Shown here piece after piece: positions 425 through 60,525 of a DNA stretch of 64,000 nucleotides. The DNA is from Clostridia bacterium (GTDB lineage Bacteria > Bacillota > Clostridia > Oscillospirales > SIG627): contig JAFWBD010000047.1 in assembly GCA_017507325.1 (NCBI GenBank), positions 1,146 to 65,145 of the forward strand. The letters are read 5' to 3'. The first letter of the stretch is position 1, and each line of letters begins with the position of its first letter. Under the pieces are notes generated by a model. The model searched no databases, was not told the origin of the DNA, and saw only the letters and a program-made list of their open reading frames with translations. The position numbers and the translations under genes are program-made.

Positions 425-436
425 AGCGCTTCTCCT

Positions 437-10580: not shown

Positions 10581-10609
10581 TTGTTTTTTTATTGGAAATA
10601 TGCTATACT
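10581..10609 (+). promoter_or_regulatory. Candidate promoter of the kor-suc operon
   Basis: TTGTTT (10581-10586), a 17-nt spacer ending in TGc, then TATACT (10604-10609). Confidence 0.4.
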
Positions 10610-10689
10610 TTCTCTATTGTTGTAAAAAAACGATCAAAATCAGAAAGGTAATACTGCAAACCAAAAAGGGTTGCAAACGGTTTTTCAAT

Positions 10690-12017: not shown

Positions 12018-12021
12018 GGCT

Positions 12022-12840: not shown

Positions 12841-12854
12841 GGGAGGAGAGCGCT

Positions 12855-13385: not shown

Positions 13386-13416
13386 TCAGTAACAGAAAGC
13401 AAGGTAACACGAATTT

Positions 13417-14598
13417 ATGAAAATACACGAGTATCAATCCTGCGAGCTCTTTGAGCGCTACGGAATCCCCTGCCCCAAGGGATATTTGGCAATGTATCCC
13501 GAGGAAGCGGTGGAGGCCGCCCGAAAATTGGGGGCGTTTCCCGTGGCCGTGAAGGCTCAGATCCACTCCGGCGGTCGAAGAAAGGCCGGCGGCGTGAAAA
13601 TTTGTTTTTCCAAATCCGAGGTTCGGGAATATTCCAAGGGGCTGATCGGAAAGGTTTTGTACCCCCATCAGGCAGGCCCCGAGGGGAAATTGGTTCGCCG
13701 CATTTACATCACCGCAGGCAGCAACATTGAGCAAGAATACTACGTTTCCATGACGGTGGATGCCGAAAACGCCTCGGTGGTGATGATCGCCTCCGCAGAC
13801 GGCGGAACGGAGATCGAGGAGCTCAGCCGCACCCATCCCGAAAAGATCTTCCGTCTGAACATCGACCCCGTGATCGGCTACAAGGATTATAACGGTTGGG
13901 AAATGGCCAAAATGCTGGACTTTGAAGGCGAGCAGGCCAAGACCTTTGTGAAGATCGCAAGAGGTATGTACCGTCTGTTTATGGATAAGGACTGCTCTTT
14001 GGTGGAAATCAATCCCTTGATCACCACCAAGGAAGGCGATCTGATCGCACTTGACGCCAAGGTCAATTTTGACGACAACGCCCTCTTCCGTCACCCCGAC
14101 ATTATGGAATTGAGAGACTACGACGAGGAGGATCCCAAGGAGATCGAAGCCTCAAAATATGATCTCAACTACGTTTCGCTGGATGGCTCCGTGGGCTGTA
14201 TGGTCAACGGCGCAGGCCTTGCCATGGCGACCATGGATATCATCAAAAACTTCGGCGGTGAGCCTGCAAACTTTTTGGACGTGGGCGGCTCGGCCACCAC
14301 GGAGAGAGTGAAGGCGGCCTTTGAGATCGTTCTTTCCGATCCCAACGTTCGCTCCATTCTGGTGAATATTTTCGGCGGAATTATGAAATGCGACGTGATC
14401 GCCCAAGGCATCATCGAAGCCGCAAAATCCATGGAAATCCGTGTTCCCGTGGTGGTTCGTCTGGACGGAACCAACGCCGAGGAGGGCAGAGCCCTGCTGC
14501 AGAAGTCCGGTCTGGATCTGATTCCCGCGGAGACCTTTGCCGAAGCGGCAAAGGCCGCAGTAGAACTTGCAAATCAAGGGAAGGAGGCTGCAAAATGA
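13417..14598 (+). CDS. sucC: Succinyl-CoA synthetase (ADP-forming) beta subunit
   Basis: [18 protein letters not shown]... is the ATP-grasp N-terminus. [14 protein letters not shown] is also present. Confidence 0.9.
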
Positions 14599-34300: not shown

Positions 34301-35705
34301 CAAGACCGTTTACGAAATCGTGGTGACGGTAGAAGAGGTAAACGGACGGTATGAGATCGATTACACCGTAACGGGCCAGACCTCCCCCGTGATCTCCTTT
34401 ACCAACACCTACACCGCAAAAGAAGCCACCGCCACCTTGAGCGGCAAGAAGTATCTGAACGGAAACGCCTCCGAAAAACCCTTCTCCTTCAATCTCTACG
34501 AGTCCAATTCCAATTGGACCTTCGGCGAAAAGATCGAAACGGCAGAGAACGGAAGCGACGGCATCTTCACCTTCACCAAGCTCGGTATCAAGAACGGCGA
34601 CGGCGACTTCACCTTCACCCGAGTCGGCAGCTACTACTACCTGATCCGTGAGGAGGGCGCCGGTCAAGACGTTGACGGCATTCTCTACGATTCCGCCGTG
34701 ATCCGCGTTCGCGTTGACGTCAGCGACGACGGGAACGGACAGCTGGTTGCCACGGTCCATCTCCTGGATGAAAACGGTCAGCCCAAGGAGGCTCGCTTCG
34801 ATAACCTGTACCGCGTGACCGAGGGCTGCACGGCAGAGCTTGGCGGCAAGAAGGAAATGAGCGGACGGGAAATGACCTCTTCCGACGTATTCACCTTCGA
34901 GATTTACGCATCCGATGAAAACGGAGCCCTTGGCGAAAAGCTCCAAAGCGTGCAGAACAGCGGCAAGGACTTCAAGTTCACCCTCAACTTCAAGCCCGAG
35001 GATGCCGGCAAGACCCTCTACTACCTGGTGAAGGAAGCCCTCGGCGGTACCACCGCAGATCGCGTGACCTACGACGACAGCGTATATCTGGTTTCCATCA
35101 AAGCAAAGGACGGCGGGGGCGGCGTTCTGGTAACCGAGGCTCCCGTGATCGTAAAGAAGGGCGGCACTGCTCCCGCAGAGCTGATCTTCCGCAACGTATT
35201 CACTCCCAAGCCCGCTGATCTGAGCGTTAGCATTCAGGCTCAGAAGACGGTGAAAAACGAGGGGAACGGCACTCCCATCGGACCCGAAGGATTCGAGTTT
35301 GTGCTGGAGGATATCGCCACCCGAAACACCGTGACCAAGGTCTCCGATGAAAACGGTCTGGCTCAATTTGCGCTGACCTTCTCGGAGGATGACATTGGCA
35401 GCACCTTCCGTTATACCTTGAGCGAAAAGGACGGCGGAAACGAAAAGATTACCTACAGCAAGGCAGTCTACGAAATCAGCATCACCATTTCTCTCGGAAG
35501 CGACAACAAGCTGGTTGCCACCGTTTCCGACGGAACCAATACGGCTGACAGCTTTGTCGGTGCCTTTGAAAACGTTTACGACTCAAACGAGGCACCCCCC
35601 ATGGGCGACAGCAGCAATCTTTCCCTTTATTTGACCATGATGATCCTCAGCGGCGGCGCCGTTCTCACCATGGCGGCCAAGGGTAAGAAGAAGCGCGCTC
35701 GCTAA
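28341..35705 (+). CDS. Giant cell-surface adhesin-like protein (2454 aa): signal peptide, VWA domain, Cna-B/Ig-like region, 10 Spy0128/FctA-type isopeptide modules and a C-terminal hydrophobic anchor with a basic tail
   Basis: The signal peptide reads MIPKTSFSKRATSLILAVAILFTMIPMVISTGAAS. The VWA MIDAS motif is LILDVSGSMN, with ...VVVLMSDGAP further on. Ten modules of about 125 aa each carry Lys (e.g. VTGEKVL), Glu (YHYLISE) and Asn (IRFVNRY) triad positions. The C-terminus reads ...EAPPMGDSSNLSLYLTMMILSGGAVLTMAAKGKKKRAR. Confidence 0.9.
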   Translation: MIPKTSFSKRATSLILAVAILFTMIPMVISTGAASVNGNRISDPSTMDSWRNYFPISGNITTENAGGVWMDKSVFTDASAFAGLGITQDKQNSFLVALSAMAANMSVTGTSSVPTDSMLILDVSGSMNDGENDVAEELVEAANESIATLLNANAKSRVGVVLYSGSSSSSTNYTSAAMLLLPLGRYATGADNEYLTYTVSGGNGSTTETIGIDLDVVYEGSSTKPTSLSKDVVGATYIQRGLAVAMEEFVKAENVIASADRRKPVVVLMSDGAPSLGSTNFTDPGNGQNRGFNMGSGSGTSAALGFVSQLTASYTKAKIEEKYGTEALFYTLGLGLGSRDSVALSVMDPSNPNGSNAVDDFWNENRAGNWFQSAFKGYNHVNVGDRIEVEDNKYITKIETPLEQNYVDQYFAASTTNLVQVFQSIISMIQLQSAYFPTLVSESEDHSGFVSFVDRIGSYMSVTDIKGILIHDQLFSGADLASNFVAGGGELGSGSAPTDLGLKMVEAVRTRLGLPNDDVARALIFLAYENGQLRYTSADDFSNYIGWYANAAGEYLGFYHEGVTTLPAPTGNAATDPAFIIRSYGYLGEVDESHGVVKSDMMFATVQVRKNIASGEELVTFAVPAALIPTVTYKASLDRDGNLSELSVEGATNPIRLVYEVALDDSINSFNVKEMVSAEYLADPHNVNSDGSVNFYTNQWEHQNTTGYGTVNTYSYFNPSRQNDKYYYQEDATVYRNESGALYEGDARPADNETVYRAIKVYTNKGGLKTETQYVPLSLEAKRTSVRRSDGSWYVPKGNVHVDINGFTVYKGGLETADPTRNLTGTLAESFIAFVDTHNHSVDEAGYEFYVGATLGNNGKYTVIPETGIKLTKTMADGVSAPSDPFTFHLSNLTDLADNTVYPAWHVDENGIGQEIGIAFTSGVASVELKAGEALYIGGMTSGDIIEVREEETVLYLPTASGLSANGTVTVAQNEMRAVSFVNDTRGTGSLTVTKEISHQLGADYTTPADKEFSVQVTLSGIETANQTFRAKLSSAAAESSVQTDANGSFRFTLKDGERLEIFDIPNGTVAAVVEENPGTGFTPTYFENDSLGDGILTVQDSVFVEIINSYVALPTTPADKITLSGTKDYLNEDGSNAWLNSSLSFEFALEKATANGWDRIGTAFATGSAPSFSFDLSSESYTAVGAYTYRIVEIIPDSREPGLLYDTTEHSFTVIVTDADMDGALEISSVISDHDSHHITYNESEKKWAVRADFVNTHYAEAPAPLSLHFLKQFDNKSQSPLSYSGFLFLLFSDAECTTPAKAENGIESINYVATASNGKGKIDLVFDEAGSYTFWAKEDPSGILGMQDSSQVVKIDVTVTQKGSALEAVAVYSIPTNTAGELVYTNTYDPTDAVLNLTASKVIIGRDMKDGEIFTFELASSDNSGEVIRGSIRDLKNGVPAEIQFEKALRFEKVGQYRYHLTETTSSADGLTADGTTFHILVTVSDQNGTLVADYQVLNHSDDSILFTNRYSAQSTTYTVTGEKVLEGKPLLNDEFTFEMVEADENGNPKAGGARYTVKNDADGSFAFEALRFTKAGSYHYLISEIPHGAENGIVYDTAKHLIRIDVSDDLSGNLVANATLPQGGIRFVNRYVPAPTSVTVSGNKVLLGQTLGEDFEFELYEWKENGTIGEKLETVKNNADGSFVFTKFGTLNPASGKWELTEAKSYYFMIREVGGGQDIDGILYDSTVYYIRIDVEDNHNGLLIASVHAYDQNMLPQMGIDFENEYRVTEGDSIQLGGSKDISGREMTSSDVFTFEIYASDENGTLGEKLSSTQNSGKNFAFTLSYTPDDVGKTFYYLVKEALGGTTVDRVTYDNSVYLVSVTVKDGGKGKILIEDPVIVKKGSDSPTTLSFVNVFTPKPADASLDISANKVLLGRDMKVGEVFTFELCAIANGAQPILGTVRGAKNGVACAIVFEKSLSFSEEGEYHYTLKETTADGNGLKVDKTVYEIVVTVEEVNGRYEIDYTVTGQTSPVISFTNTYTAKEATATLSGKKYLNGNASEKPFSFNLYESNSNWTFGEKIETAENGSDGIFTFTKLGIKNGDGDFTFTRVGSYYYLIREEGAGQDVDGILYDSAVIRVRVDVSDDGNGQLVATVHLLDENGQPKEARFDNLYRVTEGCTAELGGKKEMSGREMTSSDVFTFEIYASDENGALGEKLQSVQNSGKDFKFTLNFKPEDAGKTLYYLVKEALGGTTADRVTYDDSVYLVSIKAKDGGGGVLVTEAPVIVKKGGTAPAELIFRNVFTPKPADLSVSIQAQKTVKNEGNGTPIGPEGFEFVLEDIATRNTVTKVSDENGLAQFALTFSEDDIGSTFRYTLSEKDGGNEKITYSKAVYEISITISLGSDNKLVATVSDGTNTADSFVGAFENVYDSNEAPPMGDSSNLSLYLTMMILSGGAVLTMAAKGKKKRAR
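31700..35580 (+). repeat. Intragenic tandem array of 10 isopeptide-type modules, including a higher-order duplication (A-B-C-D / A'-C'-D')
   Basis: The protein-level periodicity is described above. At DNA level, module D (33645-34055) and module D' (34808-35220) are closely similar. 33696-33761 and 34860-34925 differ at only 2 positions. Confidence 0.85.
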
Positions 35706-47141: not shown

Positions 47142-47220
47142 CCCCGCATTTTTTTGAAACGGTGTTTTCGGCGGACTTTTTCCCTTGATCGAGATTGAAA
47201 GCGAGAGAATACGAAGCGAT

Positions 47221-49152
47221 ATGAATAAAACCTGGAAAATTTTAGTATTGGCTTGGCTGATTCTGCTGGCAGCGCTGTTTTTGGTGCTGATCTTTGCCGT
47301 TTTTTCCGACGACGAGCCCCAAGTTCAAACCCATGAAGCAGAGCAGACCACGGAGGATTTCCATCCGATCAAGACAGAGCCTGGCCGCACCCAAGAAGAA
47401 ACCTCCCCCTCCACCGAGCCCTACGAGAAGGATGATTATTACGTGGAGATCGGCAACCCCTCCGCCCGTTTTCCCAGCCTGAAGGACGCCTTTCGGAGCA
47501 TTGAGGGCAGGGTTTGGTCCAAAACGGACGTGGTGAAGATCTATTTGACGGGCACCGTTAAAACCGATGAAGCGGAAACCGTTCTCTTCGGGCAAAAGAC
47601 CATCTGGACCACCGCTCAAACCAAGCTTCCTATTATTATAGAGGGCTACGGCAGTGCCGAGATCCGCATTGGGTCTGCTCGCGTGGCCTGTGCCAACGAT
47701 TATACCTTCCGCAAGATGGACATTCTTTTGGGCGATAAGGATTCCCAAACGCAGTTTTTCGCAGGAGTGGGCGACGTATCCTTTGAGCACGTTACCCTGA
47801 ATCGGATCAAAACCGGCGGGGATATGACCGCTCATTTTTACGCCGACAACTTCACCCTGGACGTGTTTGAGGGCTGGAACCGTGCCCGTATGGAGGTTTT
47901 GAAGAATCGGGATGGGGACCGAAAGCTCTCCTCCTCGCTGACCTTCGGCATCGGTACCCGCTACGTTCACGTCAGCAGTCACGATACCGCCCCCGCCTTG
48001 AGCGCCGTGGGCTTTGACGGTGAGGCCTTTGAGGGAGATCCCCTTTCCTTTGCCGTTTCGGCTTCTCCCGCCGATTTCAAGACGAAATTTGTCGTTTCCG
48101 GCGGCACCACCTCCCGTATCGGTGCCAGAGTGGGACTCGCTCCCGTCAGTGAAGCCACGGTGGAGCTGAAAAGCGGAACGGCAGACAGCATCGTGGGAGA
48201 CAGCCATACCGATGATCCCGAGACACCCGAGGTTTACGTGGGCAACACCGTTTTGCGTGTCAGCGGCGGCTCGGTTCCGGGCAGCGCGGGCATCCGCGGT
48301 CTTTGCTATGCCACCCAAAAGGGTGATCTGACCATTGAGATCTCCGGCATTCATTACGGTTTCAACCCCACCCGCATTTCCTCCGTGGAGGGAACGCTGT
48401 TTGCCTACGTGGAGGGAACGGCCACCTTAAACATTTCCGGCGGTATCATCGAACGAAAGGCCTGCGGCGGTGCGGCAAAGCGAACCGTTAATCTCATTTC
48501 GGGCGGCATCATCGGCGGTGATTTCTTTGCCCTGGGATCCGGCTCCTCCGAGATCGTTACCACCACCGTAGTGGGCGGCACCTTTGAAGGCGTTGTTTGG
48601 GCAGGGCAAATCTCCCATACGCCCGACTCTGCCGAAATCGGCGGAGGAAATCTCCCCCCCGTTTGCAATCTTCTGATCCAAGGCGGCACCTTCCGCAAGG
48701 ATATCATTGCGGGATCGGAGGATCCCGAGGGACCCAAGGCCACGGTAACGGTGCACGCCACCGTCGCCGATATCACCTTTTACGGTACCCTTTCTCCCCG
48801 CAAGGCCCCCGCGGGAAGCGGCGTTGCCCCGCAGGATGGCCCAATCATTCTGAAGGGCGGCAGCTATTCCCTTCTTTTGACGCAGAACACCACGCTGATC
48901 TTTTCTCAGTATAACGGAAGCGGCCAAAACGTGGTCCAGACCCAGGCCTGGAAAAACGGCAATCTTTATCTGCAGATCCCCGAATCCTCCGATTACAGAA
49001 GGATTTATCTGTCCAATGTCGAGGGCATTTCGGGCTCCGCCGCCGTCTCTCTCACAGACGGCACCTACCGCTGGATCTATCGGAGGAACGAAGCGCCTCC
49101 CGCGACCCCCGATACCTCCGATACGGAAAATCCCCCCGCCGTTACCCCGTAA
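47221..49152 (+). CDS. Hypothetical N-terminally membrane-anchored protein (643 aa) with periodic hydrophobic-x-GG-x repeats (beta-solenoid-like)
   Basis: The TM helix reads MNKTWKILVLAWLILLAALFLVLIFAVF and is followed by an acidic/Pro linker. Repeats include VVSGGTTSRIGA, RVSGGSVPG, NISGGIIERKACGG, LISGGIIGGDFF, TVVGGTFEGVVW, LIQGGTFRKDII and ILKGGSYSLL. An alternative TTG start lies at 47185. Confidence 0.7.
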   Translation: MNKTWKILVLAWLILLAALFLVLIFAVFSDDEPQVQTHEAEQTTEDFHPIKTEPGRTQEETSPSTEPYEKDDYYVEIGNPSARFPSLKDAFRSIEGRVWSKTDVVKIYLTGTVKTDEAETVLFGQKTIWTTAQTKLPIIIEGYGSAEIRIGSARVACANDYTFRKMDILLGDKDSQTQFFAGVGDVSFEHVTLNRIKTGGDMTAHFYADNFTLDVFEGWNRARMEVLKNRDGDRKLSSSLTFGIGTRYVHVSSHDTAPALSAVGFDGEAFEGDPLSFAVSASPADFKTKFVVSGGTTSRIGARVGLAPVSEATVELKSGTADSIVGDSHTDDPETPEVYVGNTVLRVSGGSVPGSAGIRGLCYATQKGDLTIEISGIHYGFNPTRISSVEGTLFAYVEGTATLNISGGIIERKACGGAAKRTVNLISGGIIGGDFFALGSGSSEIVTTTVVGGTFEGVVWAGQISHTPDSAEIGGGNLPPVCNLLIQGGTFRKDIIAGSEDPEGPKATVTVHATVADITFYGTLSPRKAPAGSGVAPQDGPIILKGGSYSLLLTQNTTLIFSQYNGSGQNVVQTQAWKNGNLYLQIPESSDYRRIYLSNVEGISGSAAVSLTDGTYRWIYRRNEAPPATPDTSDTENPPAVTP

Positions 49153-49279: not shown

Positions 49280-50800
49280 ATGAAAAACAGCATTTTCCGC
49301 CGATCCACCTCGTGGATCCTCCTGCTGGCCACCCTCGTGTGCGCCGCACTCCCGCTTTTAACCTCCTGTACCGATACCACTCCCGCTACCGGTACGCAGA
49401 CCCAAACCGGTGAGCCCACCACGGAAGAGGCCGGCACCACCGCAGGGGAAACCGAGGAGGAAAACACCCACGTCAGACCCACCATCGACTTTACCATTCC
49501 CGATGACAAAAACCTTGTAAAAATGCTCGAAACCGTGCCCCTCGCCAATGCCAATATGACCGAGGCTGAGCTGCGCGACGTAGTTTTGAAGTTTATGAAG
49601 GTACAGCTGACCTTTGCCTACACCCCCGATTTCGGCGACAATTACGACGAAAGCTCCTATACCTATTACATCAAGAACCTCAAGAGCCTTTACGGCGGCC
49701 AGGAGGGTACCAGAATCACCTTTGAAGAGGGCAAGGCCTACGGCGGCGTCCCCTATAAGGGAAATACCTGCGGCACCATTTACCGCTGGCTCCCCTTCTA
49801 TGAGGAAGAAACCGGCTTTATGGATTGGGAACCCATCATCAATTCTCAAAGACTGAATTGGAAGAACGCCGACAACGGCGAAATTTGGCCCAACGTAGGA
49901 AGCTCCGTATTCGGCAACTCCTGCTCCTCCGCTTGCTTCTGGGCTTGGGGCAGAGTTACCAACCAGCTCAAGGGACCCTGGTGTGCCAGCTGGCTCCCCT
50001 CCAACGGCTACGTTCAGGTTGGTGATTATCAGCTCGGCGCTGACAACAAGAGAGCCGAGGGCAATGATGCGATCCTTGCCGCCAACGGCAGACAGAAAAT
50101 GTATCAGGCTTACGCGCAGGTGAAGGCCGCCGACGGCTTTGTCAGCGACGGACACGCCACCATGGCCATTTCCGATGCCCACGTGGTCTACAATGCCAAC
50201 GGCACCATCAACGGAACCGAAAGCTACGTTCTCATTGCTGAGCAGAAGGCTTCCTTCTTGACCGCTTCTCCCGCAAAGGGCGGTGTGGATCTCTATTCCC
50301 CTATGAATTCCGAAGGCGCCACCTACCGCATTATGGGTAACTGGCCCGGCACCATCGTAAACGAAAAGGTTAAGGAGATGAAGTGGAACTTCGTTTATCT
50401 CTTCGATACCGGTTACCTTCCCTTTACCATTCCGGAATTCTCCGGTGCCGATCCCGTGGAAAAGGCTGAAGCAAGCATGAGTCACCCCTCCGAAACCATC
50501 AAATTCCACACCATCAAAGCGAAGACCATCACCTCCAACTACTGCATTTCCGACGTAACGATCAACGTAAAGAACAAGGACGGCAAGATCGTATACTCCG
50601 GCTTTTACTGCCCCACCGGCGTTCCCTCCAAAACCGTCAGCTTGGAAGGCGCGCTTCTGAACAACGTGATCTACAAGAACAAGGGCGCCATCAATCTGGC
50701 TCTCTCGGGCTATACCGACGGCAACTACACCCTTGAGGTTCAGTGCCGCGTTTCCACCGGTGAGCTGTTTACCGTTTACACCGGAACCATCACCGAGTAA
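49280..50800 (+). CDS. Paralog 1 of an uncharacterised lipoprotein family (506 aa)
   Basis: Lipobox LLTSC and a Thr/Glu-rich linker. Shared motifs are LQLTFAYTPD, YRWLPFY..ETGFMDWEP, FGNSCSSACFWAW, DGHATMAISDAHVVY, PFTIPE and CRVSTGE. Confidence 0.85.
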   Translation: MKNSIFRRSTSWILLLATLVCAALPLLTSCTDTTPATGTQTQTGEPTTEEAGTTAGETEEENTHVRPTIDFTIPDDKNLVKMLETVPLANANMTEAELRDVVLKFMKVQLTFAYTPDFGDNYDESSYTYYIKNLKSLYGGQEGTRITFEEGKAYGGVPYKGNTCGTIYRWLPFYEEETGFMDWEPIINSQRLNWKNADNGEIWPNVGSSVFGNSCSSACFWAWGRVTNQLKGPWCASWLPSNGYVQVGDYQLGADNKRAEGNDAILAANGRQKMYQAYAQVKAADGFVSDGHATMAISDAHVVYNANGTINGTESYVLIAEQKASFLTASPAKGGVDLYSPMNSEGATYRIMGNWPGTIVNEKVKEMKWNFVYLFDTGYLPFTIPEFSGADPVEKAEASMSHPSETIKFHTIKAKTITSNYCISDVTINVKNKDGKIVYSGFYCPTGVPSKTVSLEGALLNNVIYKNKGAINLALSGYTDGNYTLEVQCRVSTGELFTVYTGTITE

Positions 50801-50827
50801 ACAAGCGGGAATCGTTTTGGAGATTTT

Positions 50828-52336
50828 ATGAAACGTATTTTTCCCAAAATCATTACGTCCGTTTTATGTTCGGCCATTCTTCTTTCCGCTCTGCTTCCCC
50901 TTCTCTCCTCCTGCACGGGAGGAGAGGAGGGCGGCCGGACCCTTCCCGAAAGCACCTTGACCGAAGAAGGCAATGCCTCTCCCACCGAGGAGACCGAGGA
51001 GATCAAGGTAAGACCGCAAATCGATTTTGTGATCCCCGAGGACAAAAATCTTGCCATTCAATTGGAACAGATTCCCATCGCCCGTGAGGGAATGAGTGAG
51101 GCGGAATTGCGCAGCATTGTATTGAAATTTTTCAAATTGCAGTTAACCTTTGCCTACACCCCCGATTTTGGAGAAGAGATGGATTCATACTCCTATTATA
51201 TCTCTGCATTAAACAAGCTTTACGGCTACGACGGGTGCAAGATCACCTTTGAGGAAGGCAAGGCTTACGGCGGTGTCCCTTATATGCAGGCGACCTGCGG
51301 AACCGCATACCGTTGGCTGGCCTTTTACGACAGAGAGACCGGCTTTATGGATTGGGAGCCCATCATCAATTCCCGCCGCCTGAATTGGTCCAACTCCGGC
51401 GGAACCACCTACCCCGATGCGGGAAGCTATATTTTCGGTAATTCCTGCTCCTCCTCCTGCTTTTGGGCATTCGCGCGCGTCAGCAATGAATTGAACTCCT
51501 GCTGGACTGCAGGCTGGAGCCCCAATAACGGCTTTGTGAAGGTGGGCGATTTTGAGCTGAACGAAAGCGGCACCATCGGGGACAGCAGTAAAACGCTTAC
51601 CGCCATGAACGGAAAGCAAAAAATGTACAATGCATACGCCCTGATCAAGGGCGGCGACGGATTGGTTCATACCGGCCACGCCGTTATGGCGATTGAGGAT
51701 GCTCACGTGGTCTATCAATCCAACGGACTGATCGACGGCGAAAACAGCTATATTATCTACGCTGAGCAGCAGGCACACTTCAGAACCGCCTCCCCGCTGG
51801 ATGGCGGCGTAGAGCTTTACTCTCCCTTGAACGGCGACGGTGCCACCTTCCGCATTCAGGGCTTCTACCCCGGTACCGTAATGAACGGCCAGGTAAAAGA
51901 GATGAAGTGGACCTTCAACACCCTTTATGAAAAAGGGTATTTCCCCTTCACCATTCCGGAATATTCCGGTGCGGCCCCCATAGAGCCGGCAACCGCCACC
52001 ATCGGCCATGATTCCGACAAAATCCGTCTTTCCGGCTTGAGGATGAAAACCCTTTCCTCCAATTACTACGTTTCCGACGTACACTTCTCCGTAAAGGATG
52101 CAAACGGAAAAGAGGTTTTCACCGCCGTTTACTGCAGTGACGGAAAAACCTCCGCTCATTCTATGAAAAACGTCCCCTTAAACCCTGCTCTCTTTGCAAA
52201 TCCCATTTACGATTCCAAAGGATATATTAACTTCAATTTGTCAAAATATACCGACGGCAATCACACCCTTGAAATCCAATGCCGCGTTTCCACCGGTGAA
52301 ATGCTCAGTGCTTACGTCGGCACCTTAACGGAGTAA
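50828..52336 (+). CDS. Paralog 2 of the lipoprotein family (502 aa)
   Basis: Lipobox LLSSC, with FGNSCSSSCFWAF and TGHAVMAIEDAHVVY. It starts 27 nt after paralog 1. Confidence 0.85.
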   Translation: MKRIFPKIITSVLCSAILLSALLPLLSSCTGGEEGGRTLPESTLTEEGNASPTEETEEIKVRPQIDFVIPEDKNLAIQLEQIPIAREGMSEAELRSIVLKFFKLQLTFAYTPDFGEEMDSYSYYISALNKLYGYDGCKITFEEGKAYGGVPYMQATCGTAYRWLAFYDRETGFMDWEPIINSRRLNWSNSGGTTYPDAGSYIFGNSCSSSCFWAFARVSNELNSCWTAGWSPNNGFVKVGDFELNESGTIGDSSKTLTAMNGKQKMYNAYALIKGGDGLVHTGHAVMAIEDAHVVYQSNGLIDGENSYIIYAEQQAHFRTASPLDGGVELYSPLNGDGATFRIQGFYPGTVMNGQVKEMKWTFNTLYEKGYFPFTIPEYSGAAPIEPATATIGHDSDKIRLSGLRMKTLSSNYYVSDVHFSVKDANGKEVFTAVYCSDGKTSAHSMKNVPLNPALFANPIYDSKGYINFNLSKYTDGNHTLEIQCRVSTGEMLSAYVGTLTE

Positions 52337-52341
52337 TGTTT

Positions 52342-53853
52342 ATGAAAAATTCGCATCATTCCCGAAGAGTCACCGCGCTGATCTTATCTTTGATCTTTGC
52401 TGTTTTACCCCTGTTAACCGCCTGCCGGACCGAACCCTCCGTAACGGAGGGTTCGCAAACGCAAACACAAACGCAAGCGGGAACCGAGACCGATGGCGGC
52501 GGCGCCGCAACGGAAGAAAAAAAGGTTCGCCCCAAAATTGATTTTGTGATCCCCGAGGACAAAAATCTTGCCATTCAATTGGAAAAGATTCCCATCGCCC
52601 GTGAGGGAATGAGCGAAAAGGAATTGAGAGAAATCGTTCTGCAATTCATGGAGCTGCAATTGACCTTTGCCTATACCCCCGATTTCGGGGACGAGGAAAA
52701 TTCCGCCTTTGTTCATTCGATTCCCGCCCTAAATAAGCACTACGGGTTTGACGGCTGTCAGATCACCTATGCGGAAGGAAAGGCTTACGGCGGAATGCCC
52801 TATATGCAGGCAACCTGCGGCTCCGTTTACCGCTGGCTTCCCTTTTACGATGCCGAAACCGGCTTTATGGATTGGGAGCCCGTTGTCAGAACCCAGCGTC
52901 TGAATTGGTACGTCTCCTCCGATCCCAACACCATCTATCCCAATGCGGGCAGTTACATTTTCGGCAACACCTGCGCCTCCTCCGTGTTCTGGGCCTACGG
53001 CAGAGTTTCCAACTCCATCAAATCCTGCTGGTCCAACGGCTGGAGCATTGCCAACGGCTTTGTGAAGGTGGGCGAATATCAGCTCACCGAGAGTGAATCC
53101 GTCACCGATCGCAGTAAGGACATCACCGAAATGAACGGCAAGCAGAAAATGTACCGTTCTTACGCCGCAGTCAAGGGCGCGGACAGCCTGGTTCATACGG
53201 GCCACGCCATTCTGGCAACCGCGGACGCCCACGTGGAATACCATCCCAACGGTACCATTGACGGAGAGAAGAGCTATCTTCTCATTGCCGAGCAGAAGGC
53301 CTCCTTTTTGACCGCAGCCCCCAATCAGGGCGGCGTGGATCTGTATTCCCCCTTGAATTCCGACGGCGCCACCTACCGCATTATGGGTAACTGGCCGGGC
53401 ATTACCATCAACGGTAAGGTCAACGAGATGAAGTGGACCTTCTCCTATCTGTACGAGAACGGCTACATTCCCTTTACCATTCCCGAGCTCGTTGGTCAAG
53501 CCCCCGTGGAGAAGGCCACCGTCAGTTTCAGCTACTCGAAAGACAGCGTTGAGCTGTACAAGCTCAAATCCATGGTCATCACCGCCAACTACTACATTTC
53601 CGACTTGGAATTTGTGGTAAAGGATCAGAGCGGTAAAGAGGTATTCCGCGGTGTCTACTGCGGAAAGGGCTCTCAGATCGTGGATTCGATCACCCTTTCG
53701 GATGCCCTTTTATACAATCCCATTTACGAAAACAAGGGCTATCTCAATTTAAATCTGACCCAATATACCGACGGAACACACACCCTTGAGATCGGTTGCC
53801 GTGTCTCCACCGGTGAAATGCTTCCCGTTTATTCCGGAACCTTATTGGAGTAA
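52342..53853 (+). CDS. Paralog 3 of the lipoprotein family (503 aa)
   Basis: Lipobox LLTAC, with FGNTCASSVFWAY and TGHAILATADAHVEY. The ATG at 52342 lies 9 nt after GGAG. The ATG at 52336 overlaps the previous stop and is the alternative. Confidence 0.85.
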   Translation: MKNSHHSRRVTALILSLIFAVLPLLTACRTEPSVTEGSQTQTQTQAGTETDGGGAATEEKKVRPKIDFVIPEDKNLAIQLEKIPIAREGMSEKELREIVLQFMELQLTFAYTPDFGDEENSAFVHSIPALNKHYGFDGCQITYAEGKAYGGMPYMQATCGSVYRWLPFYDAETGFMDWEPVVRTQRLNWYVSSDPNTIYPNAGSYIFGNTCASSVFWAYGRVSNSIKSCWSNGWSIANGFVKVGEYQLTESESVTDRSKDITEMNGKQKMYRSYAAVKGADSLVHTGHAILATADAHVEYHPNGTIDGEKSYLLIAEQKASFLTAAPNQGGVDLYSPLNSDGATYRIMGNWPGITINGKVNEMKWTFSYLYENGYIPFTIPELVGQAPVEKATVSFSYSKDSVELYKLKSMVITANYYISDLEFVVKDQSGKEVFRGVYCGKGSQIVDSITLSDALLYNPIYENKGYLNLNLTQYTDGTHTLEIGCRVSTGEMLPVYSGTLLE

Positions 53854-53896
53854 CGCAATACGATTGGATCCGCATTCTTGTTTCAAGGAGGTAGCA

Positions 53897-55396
53897 ATGA
53901 ACTCTTTCTTTTCTCGTAAATGCATCGCATCGCTTCTTTTGCTGGCAACGCTTGTCGGCACCGCTCTCCCCCTTCTTTCTTCCTGCGACGGTGCAGCTCC
54001 CGCCACCGAAACCAAAACCGTAGCCTCCACCGAGGAAACGGGTACAGGCGAGACTGCCCCCGCAACCAAAGAAAAGGAACGGCCCAACGTTGCCAAGGGT
54101 GTCATTCCCGAGGAAAAAAATCTGGTTTTGCAAATGGAAAAGATTCCCATCGCCAACAGCTCCATGACGGAGGATCAGCTGCGGGATATCATTTTGCAAT
54201 TTATGAAGCTTCAGCTGACCTTTGCTTATACCCCCGATCTGGGTGACCGCGAGGATTACGGATATTATATTTCCGCCATTTCCGATGCCTACGACGTGAA
54301 TATCAACGACGAAAGCATTGACAACTGCAAGGTTACGTTCCAAGAAGAGAAATACTACGGCGGCATTTTCTACTGCGGACAGACCCACGGCTCCGTTTAC
54401 CGCTGGCTTCCCTTTTACGATGCCGAAACCGGCATTATGGATTTTGAGCCCATCATCAACTCCCGCCGCATCAACTACAAGGATAAGTGGCCCGACGGCG
54501 GAAGCGGTATATTCGGAAATTCCTGCTCCTCTGCCGTATTTTGGGCCTTCTGCCGCGTTTCCAATAAATTGACCAGTTGCTGGACGGCTCATTGGAGCCC
54601 GAAATACGGCTTTGTCAAGGTGGGTGATTTCACCCTCTCCGAGAACGATACCATTTCCGGCGACAGTGACCAGATCGCATCCAAAAACGGTTCTCAGAAG
54701 ATGTACCGCGCCTATGCGCAGGTGCAAAAGGCCGACGGATTGGTTCACTCCGGCCACGCCATTATGGCGGTGGAGGACGCCCACGTGGAATACCACCCCA
54801 ACGGCACCATCGACGGCGAAAACAGCTACATCATTTTCTGTGAGCAAAAGGCCTCCTTCCTGACGGGCTCCCCTGAGGACGGCGGCGTGGATCTTTCCTA
54901 TCCCTTGAATGACAGCGGTGCCGTTTATCGCGTTCAAGGCAACTTTCCCGGCACCTGCACCCGTGAAAAGTGGAACTTCTCCTACCTTTATTCCAAGGGC
55001 TGGTTCCCCTTTACCATTCCGGAGCTTGCAGGACTGGATCCCGTGGAGGATCCCGTTGTGGAGATCAACCACGAGGGCGATACCATAAAGTATTCCGCCC
55101 TCCGCTCCAAGGCCATTACCGCCAACTATATCATTTCCGATATTCACCTTACCGTTACCGATCGGAGCGGCAAAGAATGCTTCACCGGTATGTATGCCGT
55201 TCCCAGCGGCGGAGCCGAGGCGCTGTGGCGCGTGGGTCTCAACACCGCTCTCTACAGCAACACCCTTTACGGAAACAAGGGTCATATCGGATGGAACCTT
55301 TCCGAGTACACAAACGGAAATTACACGCTGAATATCGATTGCCGCATTTCTACGGGTGCTTTGATCCGCGTATATTCCGGAACCCTGGTTGAATAA
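53897..55396 (+). CDS. Paralog 4 of the lipoprotein family (499 aa)
   Basis: Lipobox LLSSC, with FGNSCSSAVFWAF and SGHAIMAVEDAHVEY. AAGGAGG lies upstream of the ATG at 53897. Confidence 0.85.
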   Translation: MNSFFSRKCIASLLLLATLVGTALPLLSSCDGAAPATETKTVASTEETGTGETAPATKEKERPNVAKGVIPEEKNLVLQMEKIPIANSSMTEDQLRDIILQFMKLQLTFAYTPDLGDREDYGYYISAISDAYDVNINDESIDNCKVTFQEEKYYGGIFYCGQTHGSVYRWLPFYDAETGIMDFEPIINSRRINYKDKWPDGGSGIFGNSCSSAVFWAFCRVSNKLTSCWTAHWSPKYGFVKVGDFTLSENDTISGDSDQIASKNGSQKMYRAYAQVQKADGLVHSGHAIMAVEDAHVEYHPNGTIDGENSYIIFCEQKASFLTGSPEDGGVDLSYPLNDSGAVYRVQGNFPGTCTREKWNFSYLYSKGWFPFTIPELAGLDPVEDPVVEINHEGDTIKYSALRSKAITANYIISDIHLTVTDRSGKECFTGMYAVPSGGAEALWRVGLNTALYSNTLYGNKGHIGWNLSEYTNGNYTLNIDCRISTGALIRVYSGTLVE

Positions 55397-55414
55397 TCTC
55401 TTAGGAGGAACAAA

Positions 55415-56938
55415 ATGAAATCCCGATTTTCCCGCAAATGCACCGCTTTTCTTCTCCTGCTGGCAACGCTTGTCGGCACCGCGCTCCCCCTTCTTTCTTC
55501 CTGTGACAGCACGCCCCCCGCTACCACCGAGAACCTGACCGAAACCGAGGCTACCACCACCGAAGAGGAGCTTGTCCTCAAGCCCTATGATGAGGAAACG
55601 TGGGAAAAGCCAAACGTTGCCACGGGTGTGATCCCCGAAAACAAGAATCTGGTTCTGGAAATGGAAAAAATTCCGATCGCCAACGATTCTATGACCGAGG
55701 CCGAATTGCGCGCCATCATTCTGCGCTTTGCCGAGCTTCAGCTCACCTTCGCTTACACCCCCGATCTGCGTGACCGCGAGGATTACGGCTATTACGTTTC
55801 CGCCATTGCCGATTCTTACGGTGCCGATTACAACAGCGGAACGCTGGATAACTGCAAAATTATGTACTACGAAGAAAAGTACTACGGCGGTATTCCCTAT
55901 ATGGGTCAAACCCACGGCTCCGTTTACCGCTGGCTTCCCCTTTACGATGCCGAAACCGGCCTTGTGGATTGGGAACCCATCATCAACACCCGCCGCATCA
56001 ATTACAAGGACAAATGGCCCGACGGCGGAAGCGAATATTTCGGGAACACCTGCTCCTCCAACGTTTTCTGGGCCTTCGCCCGCGTGACCAATAAGCTCGG
56101 CAACTGCTGGACCGCAGGCTGGGGTACCAAATACGGCTACGTTAAGGTAGGTGACTTTGATCTCCCCGAAAGCGGGCAAATCTCCAGCAACAGTAAGGAC
56201 GTTACGCAGAAAAACGGCAGACAGAAAATGTATCGCGCTTATGCCCTTGTGAAGGGTGCGGACGGCCTGGTTCACACCGGACACGCTATTATGGCGGTGA
56301 AGGATGCCCACGTGGTCTACAACACCAACGGCACCATCAACGGCGATGAAAGCTATATCATTTTCTGCGAGCAAAAAGCCTCCTTCTTAACCGCATCCCC
56401 AAAGGATGGCGGCGTGGATCTCTCCTACCCCTTGAATTCGAACGGCGTAACCTATCGCATTCAAGGCAACTGGCCCGGAACGGTTGCCAACGGAAAGCTC
56501 AAGGAGATGAAATGGACCTTTACTTATCTCTATGAGCACGGCTGGCTTCCTTTCACCATTCCGGAGCTTGTAGGTCAGGATCCCATTGAAAAAGCCACCG
56601 CCACCATGGGTCACAACAGCGATACCATTAAGCTCTCCGCACTGAAATTGAAGACGGTCACCTCCAACTACTACATTTCCGACGTTCAATTCACCGTTTT
56701 GGACAAGAAGGGTAACAAGCTCTTTAACGCGATGTACGCCGAAGGCAACGTTGGTGCCAATGGGCTCTTCTCCCTTGAACTTTCCAATGCCCTTTTCAAC
56801 AACCCCTTCTATTCCAACAAAGCTCGCGTCAATCTGGCTCTTTCCGAATATGCCGATAAAGACTGCACCTTGATTATCGATTGCCGCGTTTCCACGGGTG
56901 AATTGATCCGTATGTTCGAAGGAACTTTGACACAGTAA
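55415..56938 (+). CDS. Paralog 5 of the lipoprotein family (507 aa)
   Basis: Lipobox LLSSC, with FGNTCSSNVFWAF and TGHAIMAVKDAHVVY. AGGAGGA lies upstream. Confidence 0.85.
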   Translation: MKSRFSRKCTAFLLLLATLVGTALPLLSSCDSTPPATTENLTETEATTTEEELVLKPYDEETWEKPNVATGVIPENKNLVLEMEKIPIANDSMTEAELRAIILRFAELQLTFAYTPDLRDREDYGYYVSAIADSYGADYNSGTLDNCKIMYYEEKYYGGIPYMGQTHGSVYRWLPLYDAETGLVDWEPIINTRRINYKDKWPDGGSEYFGNTCSSNVFWAFARVTNKLGNCWTAGWGTKYGYVKVGDFDLPESGQISSNSKDVTQKNGRQKMYRAYALVKGADGLVHTGHAIMAVKDAHVVYNTNGTINGDESYIIFCEQKASFLTASPKDGGVDLSYPLNSNGVTYRIQGNWPGTVANGKLKEMKWTFTYLYEHGWLPFTIPELVGQDPIEKATATMGHNSDTIKLSALKLKTVTSNYYISDVQFTVLDKKGNKLFNAMYAEGNVGANGLFSLELSNALFNNPFYSNKARVNLALSEYADKDCTLIIDCRVSTGELIRMFEGTLTQ

Positions 56939-56965: not shown

Positions 56966-56998
56966 CCACCCTGCCGATTTCGGCAGGGTGGTTTTTTT
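56966..56998 (+). terminator. Rho-independent terminator closing the lipoprotein array
   Basis: An 11-bp perfect stem, ccaccctgccg pairing with cggcagggtgg, a 4-nt loop and a T7 tail. Confidence 0.8.
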
Positions 56999-57047: not shown

Positions 57048-57992
57048 TTATGATGGATCGGATTTGGAAGCCTCCGCCCAAGGCTCGGATAAAAACGCTC
57101 GGATCTCAGCGATCACCTCATCCTTGCAAAAATCCAAGAGGATCTCGTGGCGGTAGCCCTCAAAAAGACGGTATCGGGATTTTTTCCCGTTTTTGACCAA
57201 GGCCTCATGGACCCAACGCACCCCCTTGCCGTAATCCCCCACGGGATCCTCCTTCCCCGAAAGAAGCAAAACGGATAAATGGGCAGGCGTCCTTCGAAAG
57301 CAAGCGCGGGAATTGGCACGGTGATGGAGGCGGATCAGATCCCCCAAGGCACTGACGGAAAAGGAAAAGATGCAATAGGGGTCGTCTCGGTAGCGGAGAA
57401 GATTTTGGGTATCCACCGTCAGCCAGCGATTGCGATAGTCTCCGGGAAAGCGGTGATCGTAATTCCCGAACACCAATTTTTTCATCAAGGGGGAAACGTG
57501 CCGCTTTCCGCAAAAGGCGGAAATCAAATCGGCAAGGATGATCCCCAAGGGCGCCAAGGGGTTTTTGCCTGCGGTGCCCATCAGAATCAGCTTTTGCGGG
57601 CATACCCCTTCCGTCACGGCAAGGCGGGCAATAAAAGAGCCCATACTGTGCCCGAAGAGAACGTAGGGCAAATCTTCCCCCAAGCGATTCCGAACGGTGC
57701 GGCCCGCCACGCCCACGTCCAAAACCAAATGACGCCAACCGTCTTTCTCGGCAATAAAGCCCAATTCGCTCCGATCCTTTGCCGTGTGCCCGTGACCCAA
57801 ATGATCGTAAGCAAAGGCGGCGTAGCCCTCGCGGGCCATCTCCTCCAGCAAAGCCTCGTAGCGAACCGTATATTCATTCATCCCGTGAAGGGCGTGAAAG
57901 ATTCCTTTGATTTCCCCCTCAGGACGATACAGCACCCCCGAAAGGGTATGGATCCCATCCGAGGAGGGAAAGCTGATACTTTCTTTTTTCAT
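57048..57992 (-). CDS. Alpha/beta hydrolase (lysophospholipase / monoacylglycerol-lipase-like)
   Basis: Contains the nucleophile elbow GHSMGS and the oxyanion HGM motif (ALHGMNEY). The ATG at 57992 avoids overlap with CotH. The track starts at 58022. Confidence 0.8.
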   Translation of the reverse strand: MKKESISFPSSDGIHTLSGVLYRPEGEIKGIFHALHGMNEYTVRYEALLEEMAREGYAAFAYDHLGHGHTAKDRSELGFIAEKDGWRHLVLDVGVAGRTVRNRLGEDLPYVLFGHSMGSFIARLAVTEGVCPQKLILMGTAGKNPLAPLGIILADLISAFCGKRHVSPLMKKLVFGNYDHRFPGDYRNRWLTVDTQNLLRYRDDPYCIFSFSVSALGDLIRLHHRANSRACFRRTPAHLSVLLLSGKEDPVGDYGKGVRWVHEALVKNGKKSRYRLFEGYRHEILLDFCKDEVIAEIRAFLSEPWAEASKSDPS

Positions 57993-57996
57993 GTTT

Positions 57997-60525
57997 TTAC
58001 CAATCCGCAATTTGGCTGTCAATCCAAGCGGCGCGATTTCGCAAAAAGTCCTTCAAATAATGGATCTGGGAGGAATAGGTGGTATAATACTTGGTATCAA
58101 AACGCTCAAAGGCCACTTTTTTTCCCAAAATATCCCAACGCTCGAAATTCTCGTCTGCCGAGGCGGAAAGGCGGGCGTAATTTTCATCAATGGTGGTCAT
58201 CGCCGTGGAAAGGAGGGTATTCTTCATTTCATTCCAGCGATTCTTGAAGCGCTCTTGAAATTCGGGATCCTCCAAAAGGTGGGTTGACCAGGTCTCACCC
58301 ACGTAATCATCCTCCGAGGTGCTGACCCAAACGTTGAAGCCCGCCACGTCCTTGGAGAAATTGCCGAAGGCCAAATCAAAATCCCAAACGGGACCCATAC
58401 GCACCTTTTCTCCCGCATCCTTGATCAGATAGGTACTGCGCCGCCAGGCACAGTCGGTATTATTGGTCAATTCGATCATAATCAGCCAATCTACCAGCGT
58501 ATCCATATCCAGATATTCCTCGTAGCCCTCACCCTTCAAAACCGCTTCGTTGGCCTTCAGAAGATACTGATTGATGTAGTCGAACTGCTCCGAGGTCAAG
58601 CCGTTGAAATCGGGACCCTTGATGAGAACGAATTTCACCAAGCCTGCATGGAAATAGTTCATTCCCTTGACGTCCACTCCGCTGACAACACCGCCTGCCT
58701 CCATAAAAAAGCCGCAGTCCAGCTGAGACAGATCGTGGGTCACCTCGATCCTTCCCTCGCCCTCCTCCAGATGCTCTCCGAGGGTATAGACCCCCAGATA
58801 TTCTCCGTTCACAAACAGATCCACAAATTCCTGAGTAGGGCAATATTCGAAGGAAAGGGTGGAAGCCATCGCCTGAGCCAATTGATTGCGCATCAGGGAT
58901 TTATCGGCATAGTTGGCAAAGAGGGCCCATTCCTCCCCTGCAGGAAGCCCCAGAAGAGAGGTGGCTTCATCAAAATGGATCTTATAAGGCTTTTTCTCCC
59001 ACTTCCACGTGGAATTTCCTCGGCCGCGAATGCGGATATGGGTTTCCTCCAAGGAAGGGATCTCGGTTCCCTCTCCGTCCAGCGCGAAGGTGGCGGAGAT
59101 GTATTGGGTGCGGGAATCGATGGCGGCGCCCCCTTCGGTTTCGATATACAAAACGGGAATCTCATATTTCTCCCGTGCCACGAAAATGCCGTAGGCATAT
59201 TGCCTTCCCTCCCCGTCGGTGGCAACGATCCGCCCCGTGGGAAGATCCCCTTCCAGATGAGCCTCGCCTCCCTCACAGGAAAGGGTATAGCGGCAATCCT
59301 TCAAGGAAGCGGCGGAAACGGAAAAGGGCAAAAAGCCTACCAAAAGGTTCCCCTCGGGGGAAAACACCGCATCCTCCTTCAAAATCTCATTGTCGGCCAA
59401 AAGGGTGAGGGTCACCGAAAGCTCTGCCGTCCCGCCCAAGGTGGTACGCTCCCCGTTATAGGAGCGGATGTTGCTGACCCGCTCCACAGTGGATCGAATG
59501 GGAAGAGCCCCCTCTCCCGACCAAAAAACGTCCGAACAAGGTGCGAAAAAGCGCAGATTCGAGGCCGAGGGCGCTGTCCCCAAAAGATGCTCCACCCGAT
59601 AGGACCCCTCAGTATCGGAGGCAAATTCCAAATGGCCTTGGGAAAAATCGATCTTCTTTTCAAAAACCAGATTCAAATGCACCCCAAAGGAAAGCTTGTG
59701 CTCCACGGGGAAGGATTCGGTGAAGATCACCGTGGCATTCTCGTGCACGGAAGGGATCGCCTCCTCCGAGGCAAGGCGGGAAAGCTGAGAAAAATTCTCC
59801 ACGGGAAACAGATCCCGATGCAGGCTCTTTCCGTTCCAGGATTTTGCGGTCAGGTAAAAATCTCTCATCCGACGGGAAAAATTCGCCTCGAATCGGCGGG
59901 AATACAGCTTACAATCGGGCGCCGAAACGTAAAGATCGCCCGAAAAGACACGGTCGGGAAACAAAACGATCCTTCCCGAGCCCTCACAGCGAACGCTGCA
60001 CTCCGAAAAGGAAAAATCTCCGAAAAGACGAAAAGGAGCCCGCAGCGAAAGGCTTTCCAAGGCCGTGGGGCGGTAAAACACCAGATCTCCCCCCTCTTCC
60101 AAAAGGGATGCGGCCGTGGCGGCAGAGGCGGCATCGGCAAGGTATGCCGCGTCGTGCTTTTCCCCCAGCACCGCCAAAGAAAGATACCCTTCCGCAAGGG
60201 AAAGAGTCAGCTCAAGTTCCGATTCGGGAGCCAATTCCTTCCGCTCCAGCAGCTCTCCCTCTTGAAGAAAAAGAAAGCACAGCGTCTCCCTCTCGCCGTT
60301 TTTCAGCTTGAAGGTATGCTCTCCCGAGGAAAAGAAGGCCCCTTCTCGGTCGTTCATCACCTCAACCCCGTTTTCGGTCAGCAAAAAGGAACGGGATTTC
60401 CGCAGAAACGCACCGCCGAAGGCGCCAACCCCATAAAAATACAGCGTGGCACATAAAAAGATCACAAAAAGCAAAAAGGAAGCGATCACAGCGGTGATCA
60501 ATGGCTTTTGTTTTTTTGTTTCCAT
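57997..60525 (-). CDS. CotH-kinase-family protein with an N-terminal membrane anchor (842 aa)
   Basis: The TM helix is KPLITAVIASFLLFVIFLCATLYFY. The C-terminal CotH core reads IRIRGRGNSTWKWEKKPYKIHFDE...EWALFANYADKSLMRNQLA...WRRSTYLIKD...GPVWDFDLAFGN. Confidence 0.85.
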   Translation of the reverse strand: METKKQKPLITAVIASFLLFVIFLCATLYFYGVGAFGGAFLRKSRSFLLTENGVEVMNDREGAFFSSGEHTFKLKNGERETLCFLFLQEGELLERKELAPESELELTLSLAEGYLSLAVLGEKHDAAYLADAASAATAASLLEEGGDLVFYRPTALESLSLRAPFRLFGDFSFSECSVRCEGSGRIVLFPDRVFSGDLYVSAPDCKLYSRRFEANFSRRMRDFYLTAKSWNGKSLHRDLFPVENFSQLSRLASEEAIPSVHENATVIFTESFPVEHKLSFGVHLNLVFEKKIDFSQGHLEFASDTEGSYRVEHLLGTAPSASNLRFFAPCSDVFWSGEGALPIRSTVERVSNIRSYNGERTTLGGTAELSVTLTLLADNEILKEDAVFSPEGNLLVGFLPFSVSAASLKDCRYTLSCEGGEAHLEGDLPTGRIVATDGEGRQYAYGIFVAREKYEIPVLYIETEGGAAIDSRTQYISATFALDGEGTEIPSLEETHIRIRGRGNSTWKWEKKPYKIHFDEATSLLGLPAGEEWALFANYADKSLMRNQLAQAMASTLSFEYCPTQEFVDLFVNGEYLGVYTLGEHLEEGEGRIEVTHDLSQLDCGFFMEAGGVVSGVDVKGMNYFHAGLVKFVLIKGPDFNGLTSEQFDYINQYLLKANEAVLKGEGYEEYLDMDTLVDWLIMIELTNNTDCAWRRSTYLIKDAGEKVRMGPVWDFDLAFGNFSKDVAGFNVWVSTSEDDYVGETWSTHLLEDPEFQERFKNRWNEMKNTLLSTAMTTIDENYARLSASADENFERWDILGKKVAFERFDTKYYTTYSSQIHYLKDFLRNRAAWIDSQIADW

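Follow-up and report, generated by a model that had tools for sequence, protein, structure and literature searches.

A tandem array of five diverged lipoproteins in a Clostridia bacterium belongs to a large surface protein family with a putative Cys-His active site

A 64,000-nucleotide stretch of DNA from a Clostridia bacterium (contig JAFWBD010000047.1, positions 1,146 to 65,145; here called the window, in whose own numbering all positions are given unless another locus is named) carries five consecutive same-strand genes for predicted lipoproteins at 49280-56938. The genes appear to form one co-directional unit encoding membrane-anchored, outward-facing members of a large, Clostridia-restricted protein family, and each mature protein is predicted to consist of a core of ~330 residues followed by a C-terminal immunoglobulin (Ig)-like beta-sandwich of ~110 residues. 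From conserved residues and a structure prediction we lean, with some reserve, towards viewing the core as a heavily elaborated papain-like/NlpC-P60-like scaffold with the activity of a thiol (Cys-His) hydrolase or acyl-transferase, and the lipoproteins as diversified for specificity. In the proposed mechanism Cys147, at the N-terminus of a core helix, would be the nucleophile, and the role of general base would fall to His224, with which the second core strand begins after an 'ADG-hydrophobic' strand. Gln254, the last residue of the long strand that follows, would orient the histidine, and Tyr92 in a YGGxPY motif would contribute to the oxyanion hole. As the target we envisage a polymer outside the cell with amide or ester links, such as a cell-wall peptide or a host or dietary glycopeptide or protein. 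We infer the papain-like fold, the catalytic roles, the hydrolase chemistry and the class of substrate. Residue numbers refer to the mature body of copy 2; adding 60 gives the number in full-length copy 2.

The five genes had been described in a first-pass annotation, made from the nucleotide sequence, as tandem, diverged lipoprotein paralogues on the same strand, and this description holds. The open reading frames (ORFs) comprise 499-507 codons, all five products have a lipobox, and the mature bodies are 52-65% identical in pairwise comparisons, a divergence at which synonymous sites are saturated. Copies 2 and 3 (64%) are closest to each other, as are copies 4 and 5 (65%). All genes lie on the plus strand. 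Copy 1 (506 amino acids, aa; 49280-50800) matches the family hidden Markov model with E=6e-115, and has its lipobox Cys30 at 49367-49369, Cys215 at 49922-49924 and His292 at 50153-50155. Copy 2 (502 aa; 50828-52336), which was used for modeling, is divided into a signal peptide with lipobox (50828-50914, Cys29), a Thr/Glu linker reaching to 51007, the core with the conserved Cys and His (51008-51994) and the C-terminal beta-sandwich (51995-52333); its candidate residues are Tyr152 (51281-51283), Cys207 (51446-51448), His284 (51677-51679) and Gln314 (51767-51769). The corresponding Cys and His residues are Cys211 (52972-52974) and His288 (53203-53205) in copy 3 (503 aa; 52342-53853), Cys210 (54524-54526) and His287 (54755-54757) in copy 4 (499 aa; 53897-55396), and Cys213 (56051-56053) and His290 (56282-56284) in copy 5 (507 aa; 55415-56938). 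All five N-termini exhibit a K/R-rich n-region, a hydrophobic core and the sequence L-(T/S)-(S/A)-C at residues 25-30. The lipoboxes of copies 1 to 5 read LLTSC, LLSSC, LLTAC, LLSSC and LLSSC, each followed by a Thr/Glu/Gly-rich linker, and the products are predicted lipoproteins with a signal peptide and a lipobox of the form [LVI][ASTVI][GAS]C.

When 1.84 billion cluster representatives were searched with a profile built from the five bodies, 936 proteins (clusters at 50% identity) reached E<=1e-3, among them 681 with E<=1e-10 and 243 with E<=1e-30. The relatives are mostly 410-460 aa long with a lipoprotein-type N-terminus. The first-pass annotation could not name the family, and database searches gave no name either. 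The five proteins had no Pfam or NCBIfam match above threshold (DUF3244 and New_glue were seen as sub-threshold matches only), and no Pfam family was matched through the core in 111 family members (E<=0.1). Nothing relevant was returned by Pfam for 18 bodies (E<=10) and 24 edited cores (E<=10), nor by PHROGs for the 18 bodies, and sequence and profile searches of the PDB with the family alignments A1, A3, A4 and A7 gave signal-peptide or chance matches only. The family is absent from Pfam, NCBIfam and the PDB, and has no name, profile or solved structure. All retrievable source names of relatives were 'hypothetical protein [Clostridia bacterium]', and a literature search found no paper describing the family. 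Since tblastn searches of phage and plasmid collections gave no match, it does not appear to be a mobile-element or phage family.

Relatives in species-representative genomes were found in metagenome-assembled genomes (MAGs) of Oscillospiraceae, Clostridia and Eubacteriales. Labelled sources for three of five MAG records were water-buffalo caecum, roe-deer caecum and sheep rectum. Lipoboxes occur in the five copies and in many relatives. The closest subfamily (46-63% identity) includes members in which SLH (PF00395) replaces the lipobox, dockerin is present in other members, and the domain is also found C-terminally in giant proteins with BspA-type leucine-rich repeats (LRR) and dockerin. Judged from these sequences, the domain is predicted to be displayed outside the cell via at least three anchoring routes, i.e. 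lipid, SLH and dockerin. A minority of the members have no signal peptide and contain two domain copies.

Conservation was assessed in an alignment of 140 sequences (A5) and, separately, by a count over 220 domain instances in 197 proteins. In the alignment Arg35, Gly89, Tyr92, Cys147, His224, Glu318 and Gly430 were invariant (140/140 each for Tyr92, Cys147 and His224), and Asp217 (138/140), Gln254 (139/140), Ser247, Arg157, Asn352 and Tyr353 were conserved to at least 98%. Among the 212 domain instances covering the position, the Cys was present in 207 and the His in 208, so that ~98% keep these residues and a loss in most homologues is not seen. All five window copies have the FGN(S/T)C cysteine, the GHA histidine and the DAHV motif without exception, and the first-pass annotation had proposed these as the three signature positions. 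The Cys and the first His hold family-wide. The Asp-His of DAHV, on the other hand, was rejected as part of a family-wide triad: His233 is found in 25/140 sequences (Val in 72) and Asp231 in 35/140, and the subfamily of the window copies has the consensus DAVVV at this place.

The five domain instances lacking Cys, His or both are all internal repeats of two multi-repeat proteins (P0002 and P0148), the other repeats of which retain Cys and His. Of the four repeats lacking both residues, all have Lys or Ile instead of Gln254 and three have His or Trp instead of Tyr92, and the two dead repeats of P0002 have Tyr87 and Asn145 replaced too, while Arg35, Asp217, Ser247, Glu318, Asn352 and Tyr353 are retained. 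This pattern of co-loss separates an active-site set from scaffold residues, suggesting that Tyr92, Cys147, His224, Gln254 and perhaps Asn145 probably make up the active site. Glu318, Asp217 and Ser247 were considered as catalytic residues and rejected, since they are retained in the dead repeats. Position 239, i.e. 15 residues after the His, is Asp or Asn in 122/140 sequences, and is probably not catalytic because it is kept in the dead repeats as well. It falls within a loop of the type (N/D)x(D/N)GxI(D/N)G (copy 2 body 236-247, window ~51713-51748) that is conserved family-wide between the His and Gln strands; the loop resembles calcium-binding loops of the DxDxDG type, and weak EF-hand Pfam matches were seen in single members.

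An AlphaFold2 prediction based on the five paralogues alone was unusable (predicted local distance difference test score, pLDDT, 40.7). When rerun with 140 sequences as input, the prediction for the body of copy 2 reached a pLDDT of 96.8 and a predicted template-modeling score (pTM) of 0.94. In the model residues 1-329 form the core and residues 330-442 the beta-sandwich. Helix 147-156 begins with Cys147, in agreement with the first-pass annotation, which had likened the Cys to the helix-N-terminal Cys of papain-like enzymes. The Cys helix is followed by a long loop and two helices and then by a short strand, 218-221, with the sequence (A/G)DG-hydrophobic. His224 begins the next strand, 224-228, after which come a hairpin with the DGxIDG loop and strand 248-254, ending in (E/D)253-Gln254.

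In papain-like enzymes the core elements follow the order alpha(Cys N-cap)-beta1-beta2(His)-beta3(polar): the second core strand carries the His, and the third carries another polar residue, which may be Asn, Gln, Asp, Glu, His or Ser (PMC10318531). In NlpC/P60 enzymes a Tyr that precedes the Cys additionally serves the oxyanion hole. The cellulosomal module 4EZY from Ruminococcus flavefaciens uses Tyr71-Cys109-His215-Gln230 (PMC3573020). The candidate set Tyr92-Cys147-His224-Gln254 matches this quartet in order, residue type and predicted secondary-structure position. The earlier proposal of a Cys...His...Asp order as in papain, NlpC-P60 or transglutaminase-fold hydrolases is supported in part, by the placement of Cys and His in the model; to complete the putative site, Gln254 and Tyr92 are stronger candidates than the Asp-His of DAHV.

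Profiles were compared with a reference profile for NlpC/P60 made of 11 sequences (Escherichia coli MepS and ten diverse phage C40 domains). Against MepS alone hhalign gave a probability of 0.5%. In a hypothesis-guided edit the family-specific insertions 96-139 and 161-195 were removed from the family profile, and the alignment then ran colinearly through YGGxPY, GNxCS, the ADG strand and GHV with P = 0.007 and a score of 22.3, whereas 30 column shuffles of the edited comparison scored 6.6-18.0, all below this value. We regard the edited comparison as suggestive.

The likeness to the NlpC/P60 family (PF00877, MEROPS C40; MepS, AvPCP 2HBW, RflaF_05439/4EZY) lies in the order of a candidate Tyr, a Cys helix, a strand of the type 'small-D-G/L-hydrophobic', a His and a candidate polar residue, with the very quartet of 4EZY (PMC3573020), and in the hhalign alignment, weak but colinear after editing. 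Both groups are also extracellular, with SLH or dockerin modules and tandem repeated modules. PF00877 itself was not matched at any of the Pfam thresholds used. The NlpC/P60 core has ~120 residues as compared to ~330 in the present family, which has insertions of ~45 residues between YGG and Cys and ~35 after the Cys helix. The third residue comes 30 positions after the His, following the DGxIDG hairpin, instead of 12 to 15, and the fixed C-terminal Ig-like domain is a feature of the present family only. With papain-like and transglutaminase-like enzymes (clan CA; Transglut_core, CHAP, NAT) the family shares the order Cys...His...polar residue, the position of the Cys as first residue of the core helix and of the His on the second core strand (PMC10318531), and the Asp/Asn spacing of His+15 known from papain and transglutaminases. 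There is, however, no profile or fold match to this group and no match to PF01841, the Cys is flanked by GNxCSxxxFWAW rather than by the CW of papain and transglutaminases, and Asp/Asn239 survives in the dead repeats. By analogy with such enzymes, candidate substrates are peptidoglycan peptide stems, other gamma-glutamyl or D-amino-acid amides, proteins or glycopeptides, and acyl amides or esters.

A number of observations weigh against a papain-like thiol hydrolase. In a Foldseek search with the whole model against the PDB and BFVD, all matches listed were weak ones between the C-terminal sandwich and structures of the Ig/FN3/CBM type, with E ~1e-3 or worse and a template-modeling (TM) score <0.2, and the 50 listed included no structure of papain, NlpC/P60, CHAP or transglutaminase. 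With the unedited family profile hhalign aligned the Cys motif only, placing the Cys on the catalytic Cys, with non-significant P = 0.13-0.28, and the better score obtained after editing depends on the hypothesis-guided deletion. The edited core found no NlpC/P60 chain among PDB sequences and no Pfam model. The co-loss pattern comes from a small sample, i.e. four dead repeats in two proteins, some relatives have no signal peptide, and the related loci have no gene neighbourhood in common that would indicate a substrate. Homology to papain and NlpC/P60 is suggested by motif order and the topology of the predicted secondary structure, and not demonstrated by Foldseek or hhalign.

Another explanation, possible though rather improbable in our judgement, is that these are thiol enzymes (hydrolases, transferases or lyases) on a fold unrelated to papain and NlpC/P60, in which a Cys helix and a His strand arose by convergence in a new clan. 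Despite the pLDDT of 96.8 the core has no structural neighbour among the PDB and BFVD matches listed, there is no profile match in Pfam, NCBIfam or PDB sequences, the unedited hhalign comparison was not significant, and the positions of the third residue (His+30) and of the Tyr (55 residues before the Cys) are both unusual for NlpC/P60. Yet the order of Tyr, Cys, His and Gln and their secondary-structure positions fit a papain-like core (PMC10318531, PMC3573020), and the colinear alignment beat 30 of 30 shuffles. Furthermore, NlpC/P60 relatives such as 4EZY are known to escape detection by sequence (PMC3573020), and the whole-chain Foldseek matches listed were dominated by the C-terminal sandwich and not by the core. 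In its most specific form, which we likewise hold to be doubtful, the ~330-residue core would be a new clan of extracellular thiol enzymes restricted to gut and rumen Clostridia and acting on a class of substrate for which no Cys-His enzyme has so far been described, e.g. a host or dietary glycoconjugate or a lipid amide, with the arrays as a specificity repertoire. One related array is located directly behind a ceramidase-like gene.

If the proteins were not enzymes at all, they could be surface binding or adhesin modules, with Cys and His bound to a metal together with Glu/Asp or serving a structural role, and the arrays would provide antigenic or ligand variation. The C-terminal Ig-like sandwich with its weak DUF3244 and CBM-like matches, the fusions to BspA-type LRR adhesin-like giants, SLH or dockerin, the resemblance of the DGxIDG loop at 239-244 to calcium-binding loops, and the invariant Glu318 together with Asp217 as conceivable metal ligands are all in line with such a role. 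We nevertheless consider it unlikely, since Glu318 and Asp217 persist where Cys and His are lost and hence do not form one ligand set with them, since one free Cys capping a helix N-terminus, combined with a His at a strand start, is a hallmark of thiol enzymes (PMC10318531), and since the sandwich is the least conserved part of the protein and the surroundings of the Cys helix and of the His strands are the most conserved. A role as solute-binding or nutrient-capture lipoproteins for a transporter encoded elsewhere would agree with the lipobox, the acidic linker and the ~440-residue body, a typical layout of substrate-binding proteins of Firmicutes ABC transporters. It is, however, effectively refuted and in our opinion highly improbable: no solute-binding protein family was matched in Pfam or NCBIfam, no periplasmic-binding-protein fold was among the Foldseek matches listed, the predicted structure lacks the two alpha/beta lobes of such a fold, and ABC genes are found neither among the large ORFs scanned within ~8 kb of the array, in line with the first-pass annotation, nor beside most of the related arrays.

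As for the sandwich, DUF3244 (PF11589) gave sub-threshold matches in this part of 8 of 111 members (18.9 bits versus a cut-off of 25 bits), and Ig-, FN3- and CBM-like sandwiches were matched weakly by Foldseek (TM <0.2 over the whole chain). A NY.ISD motif is specific to the family and distinguishes it from DUF3244 and Ig-like sandwiches.

Returning to the array and the preferred reading of its products as thiol enzymes, the divergence between the copies is unevenly distributed. Identity among the five copies is 44% in the loop 161-193, 47% in the sandwich and 60-70% elsewhere. Since the loop after the Cys helix and the sandwich vary most, the array most likely supplies enzymes that differ in substrate or target specificity, and the divergence pattern fits a diversification of predicted substrate-facing parts. 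Tandem families of Firmicutes surface lipoproteins similarly consist of co-directional genes for diverged paralogues, with a ribosome-binding site (RBS) and a lipobox for every copy and with variable copy number; the present unit differs in having a conserved putative active site instead of being a binding protein or antigen. Copies 3 and 4, otherwise ~55% identical in protein, share a 64-nt tract with 95% identity (52818-52881 in copy 3, 54388-54451 in copy 4) that encodes GSVYRWLPFYDAETG(F/I)MD(W/F)EP and could reflect either a short gene conversion or strong constraint.

The genes of the array are separated by spacers of 27, 5, 43 and 18 nt. A GGAG or GGAGG RBS precedes copies 2-5 at normal spacing (strong GGAGG sites for copies 4 and 5), and a weaker AAAGGAA precedes copy 1. 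An alternative ATG for copy 3 at 52336 overlaps the stop of copy 2 and has the GGAG only 2 nt away, and we therefore place the start at ATG 52342, where the RBS spacing is proper. The unit is closed by an intrinsic terminator on the plus strand at 56966-56991 (11-bp stem with 9 G-C pairs, T7 tail). In agreement with the first-pass annotation, which saw no terminator before 56966, this is the sole strong one, other terminator-like matches being at background level (16 found versus 18 expected). No convincing promoter was identified in the 127-nt gap upstream of copy 1. From spacing only, we infer that the five genes are co-transcribed. No further family copy was found elsewhere in the window.

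An independent metagenome scaffold in ENA (L024) is 99.9% identical to window 51239-54870, the sole difference being an N-filled gap, and since it contains both the copy 2-3 and the copy 3-4 junctions these are not assembly artefacts. An identical copy 3 product (P0001) is encoded on an independent ENA scaffold. Antisense 'shadow' ORFs run opposite to the family genes on the minus strand (53744-56374, 49358-50509, 51209-52159 and 52729-53499), the longest of which (876 aa) spans copies 4 and 5. In L024 the gene caller picked such an antisense ORF (1-771, minus strand) instead of the truncated copy 2.

A survey of distribution and copy number, as called for in the first-pass annotation, yielded the 936 clusters described above and showed that arrays of three to at least seven copies recur in other Clostridia MAGs, with copy numbers that differ between genomes. 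As compared to the five family genes of the window, locus L001 (Clostridia MAG GCA_017508505.1) has at least seven, the whole 10-kb contig consisting of family genes in a row. The last of these (L001 7911-10012) encodes a signal-less member truncated by the end of the contig, at least 700 aa long and with two complete domain copies, and ~770-aa proteins resembling it are common among the representatives (P0012, P0014-P0018). Three family genes were found in L002-L004 (one fused to an LRR giant), in L009, in L010 and in L021, and single copies in L006, L008 and L023. In L021, another metagenome contig, the three genes (region 8666-14123) start 12 nt 3' of a neutral/alkaline ceramidase-like gene (PF04734), and a BNR sialidase-like gene and a DUF4886 gene are located nearby. 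These neighbours may hint at a lipid-amide or glycoconjugate substrate.

Within the window, large ORFs were scanned in ~8 kb on either side of the array, and no match to an ABC-transporter family was found. The gene immediately upstream (47185-49152, plus strand) encodes a 655-aa protein in which an N-terminal membrane anchor and an acidic linker are combined with a beta-helix-like body rich in Gly, and for which there was no Pfam match. A link between this gene and the array was considered and rejected, as no homologue is located beside any related array. Downstream, two minus-strand genes converge on the array terminator, an S33-type alpha/beta hydrolase gene (57048-58022) and a gene for an 842-aa protein of the CotH-kinase family with an N-terminal membrane segment (57997-60525), the latter overlapping the start of the former by 26 nt. 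Further away, at 28341-35705 on the plus strand, a surface protein of 2454 aa combines DUF7601 and a VWA domain with ten Spy0128-like isopeptide (FctA) domains and looks like a giant pilin or adhesin, and its gene is followed by GH2 beta-galactosidase and GH28 genes.

Among the Clostridia of animal guts, uncultured Oscillospiraceae included, the family is abundant. Provided that the papain-like assignment is correct, it would represent a new and unusually large variant of papain-like enzymes, and the superfamily would gain an insertion-rich architecture of unusual size; otherwise it would constitute a new clan. The confident model and the candidate residues Cys207, His284, Gln314 and Tyr152 of full-length copy 2 make the family directly testable. 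Should its members be thiol hydrolases, they would form a sizeable enzyme family for the surface biology of gut and rumen bacteria, with possible roles in wall remodelling, in inter-bacterial competition or in the processing of host and dietary polymers.

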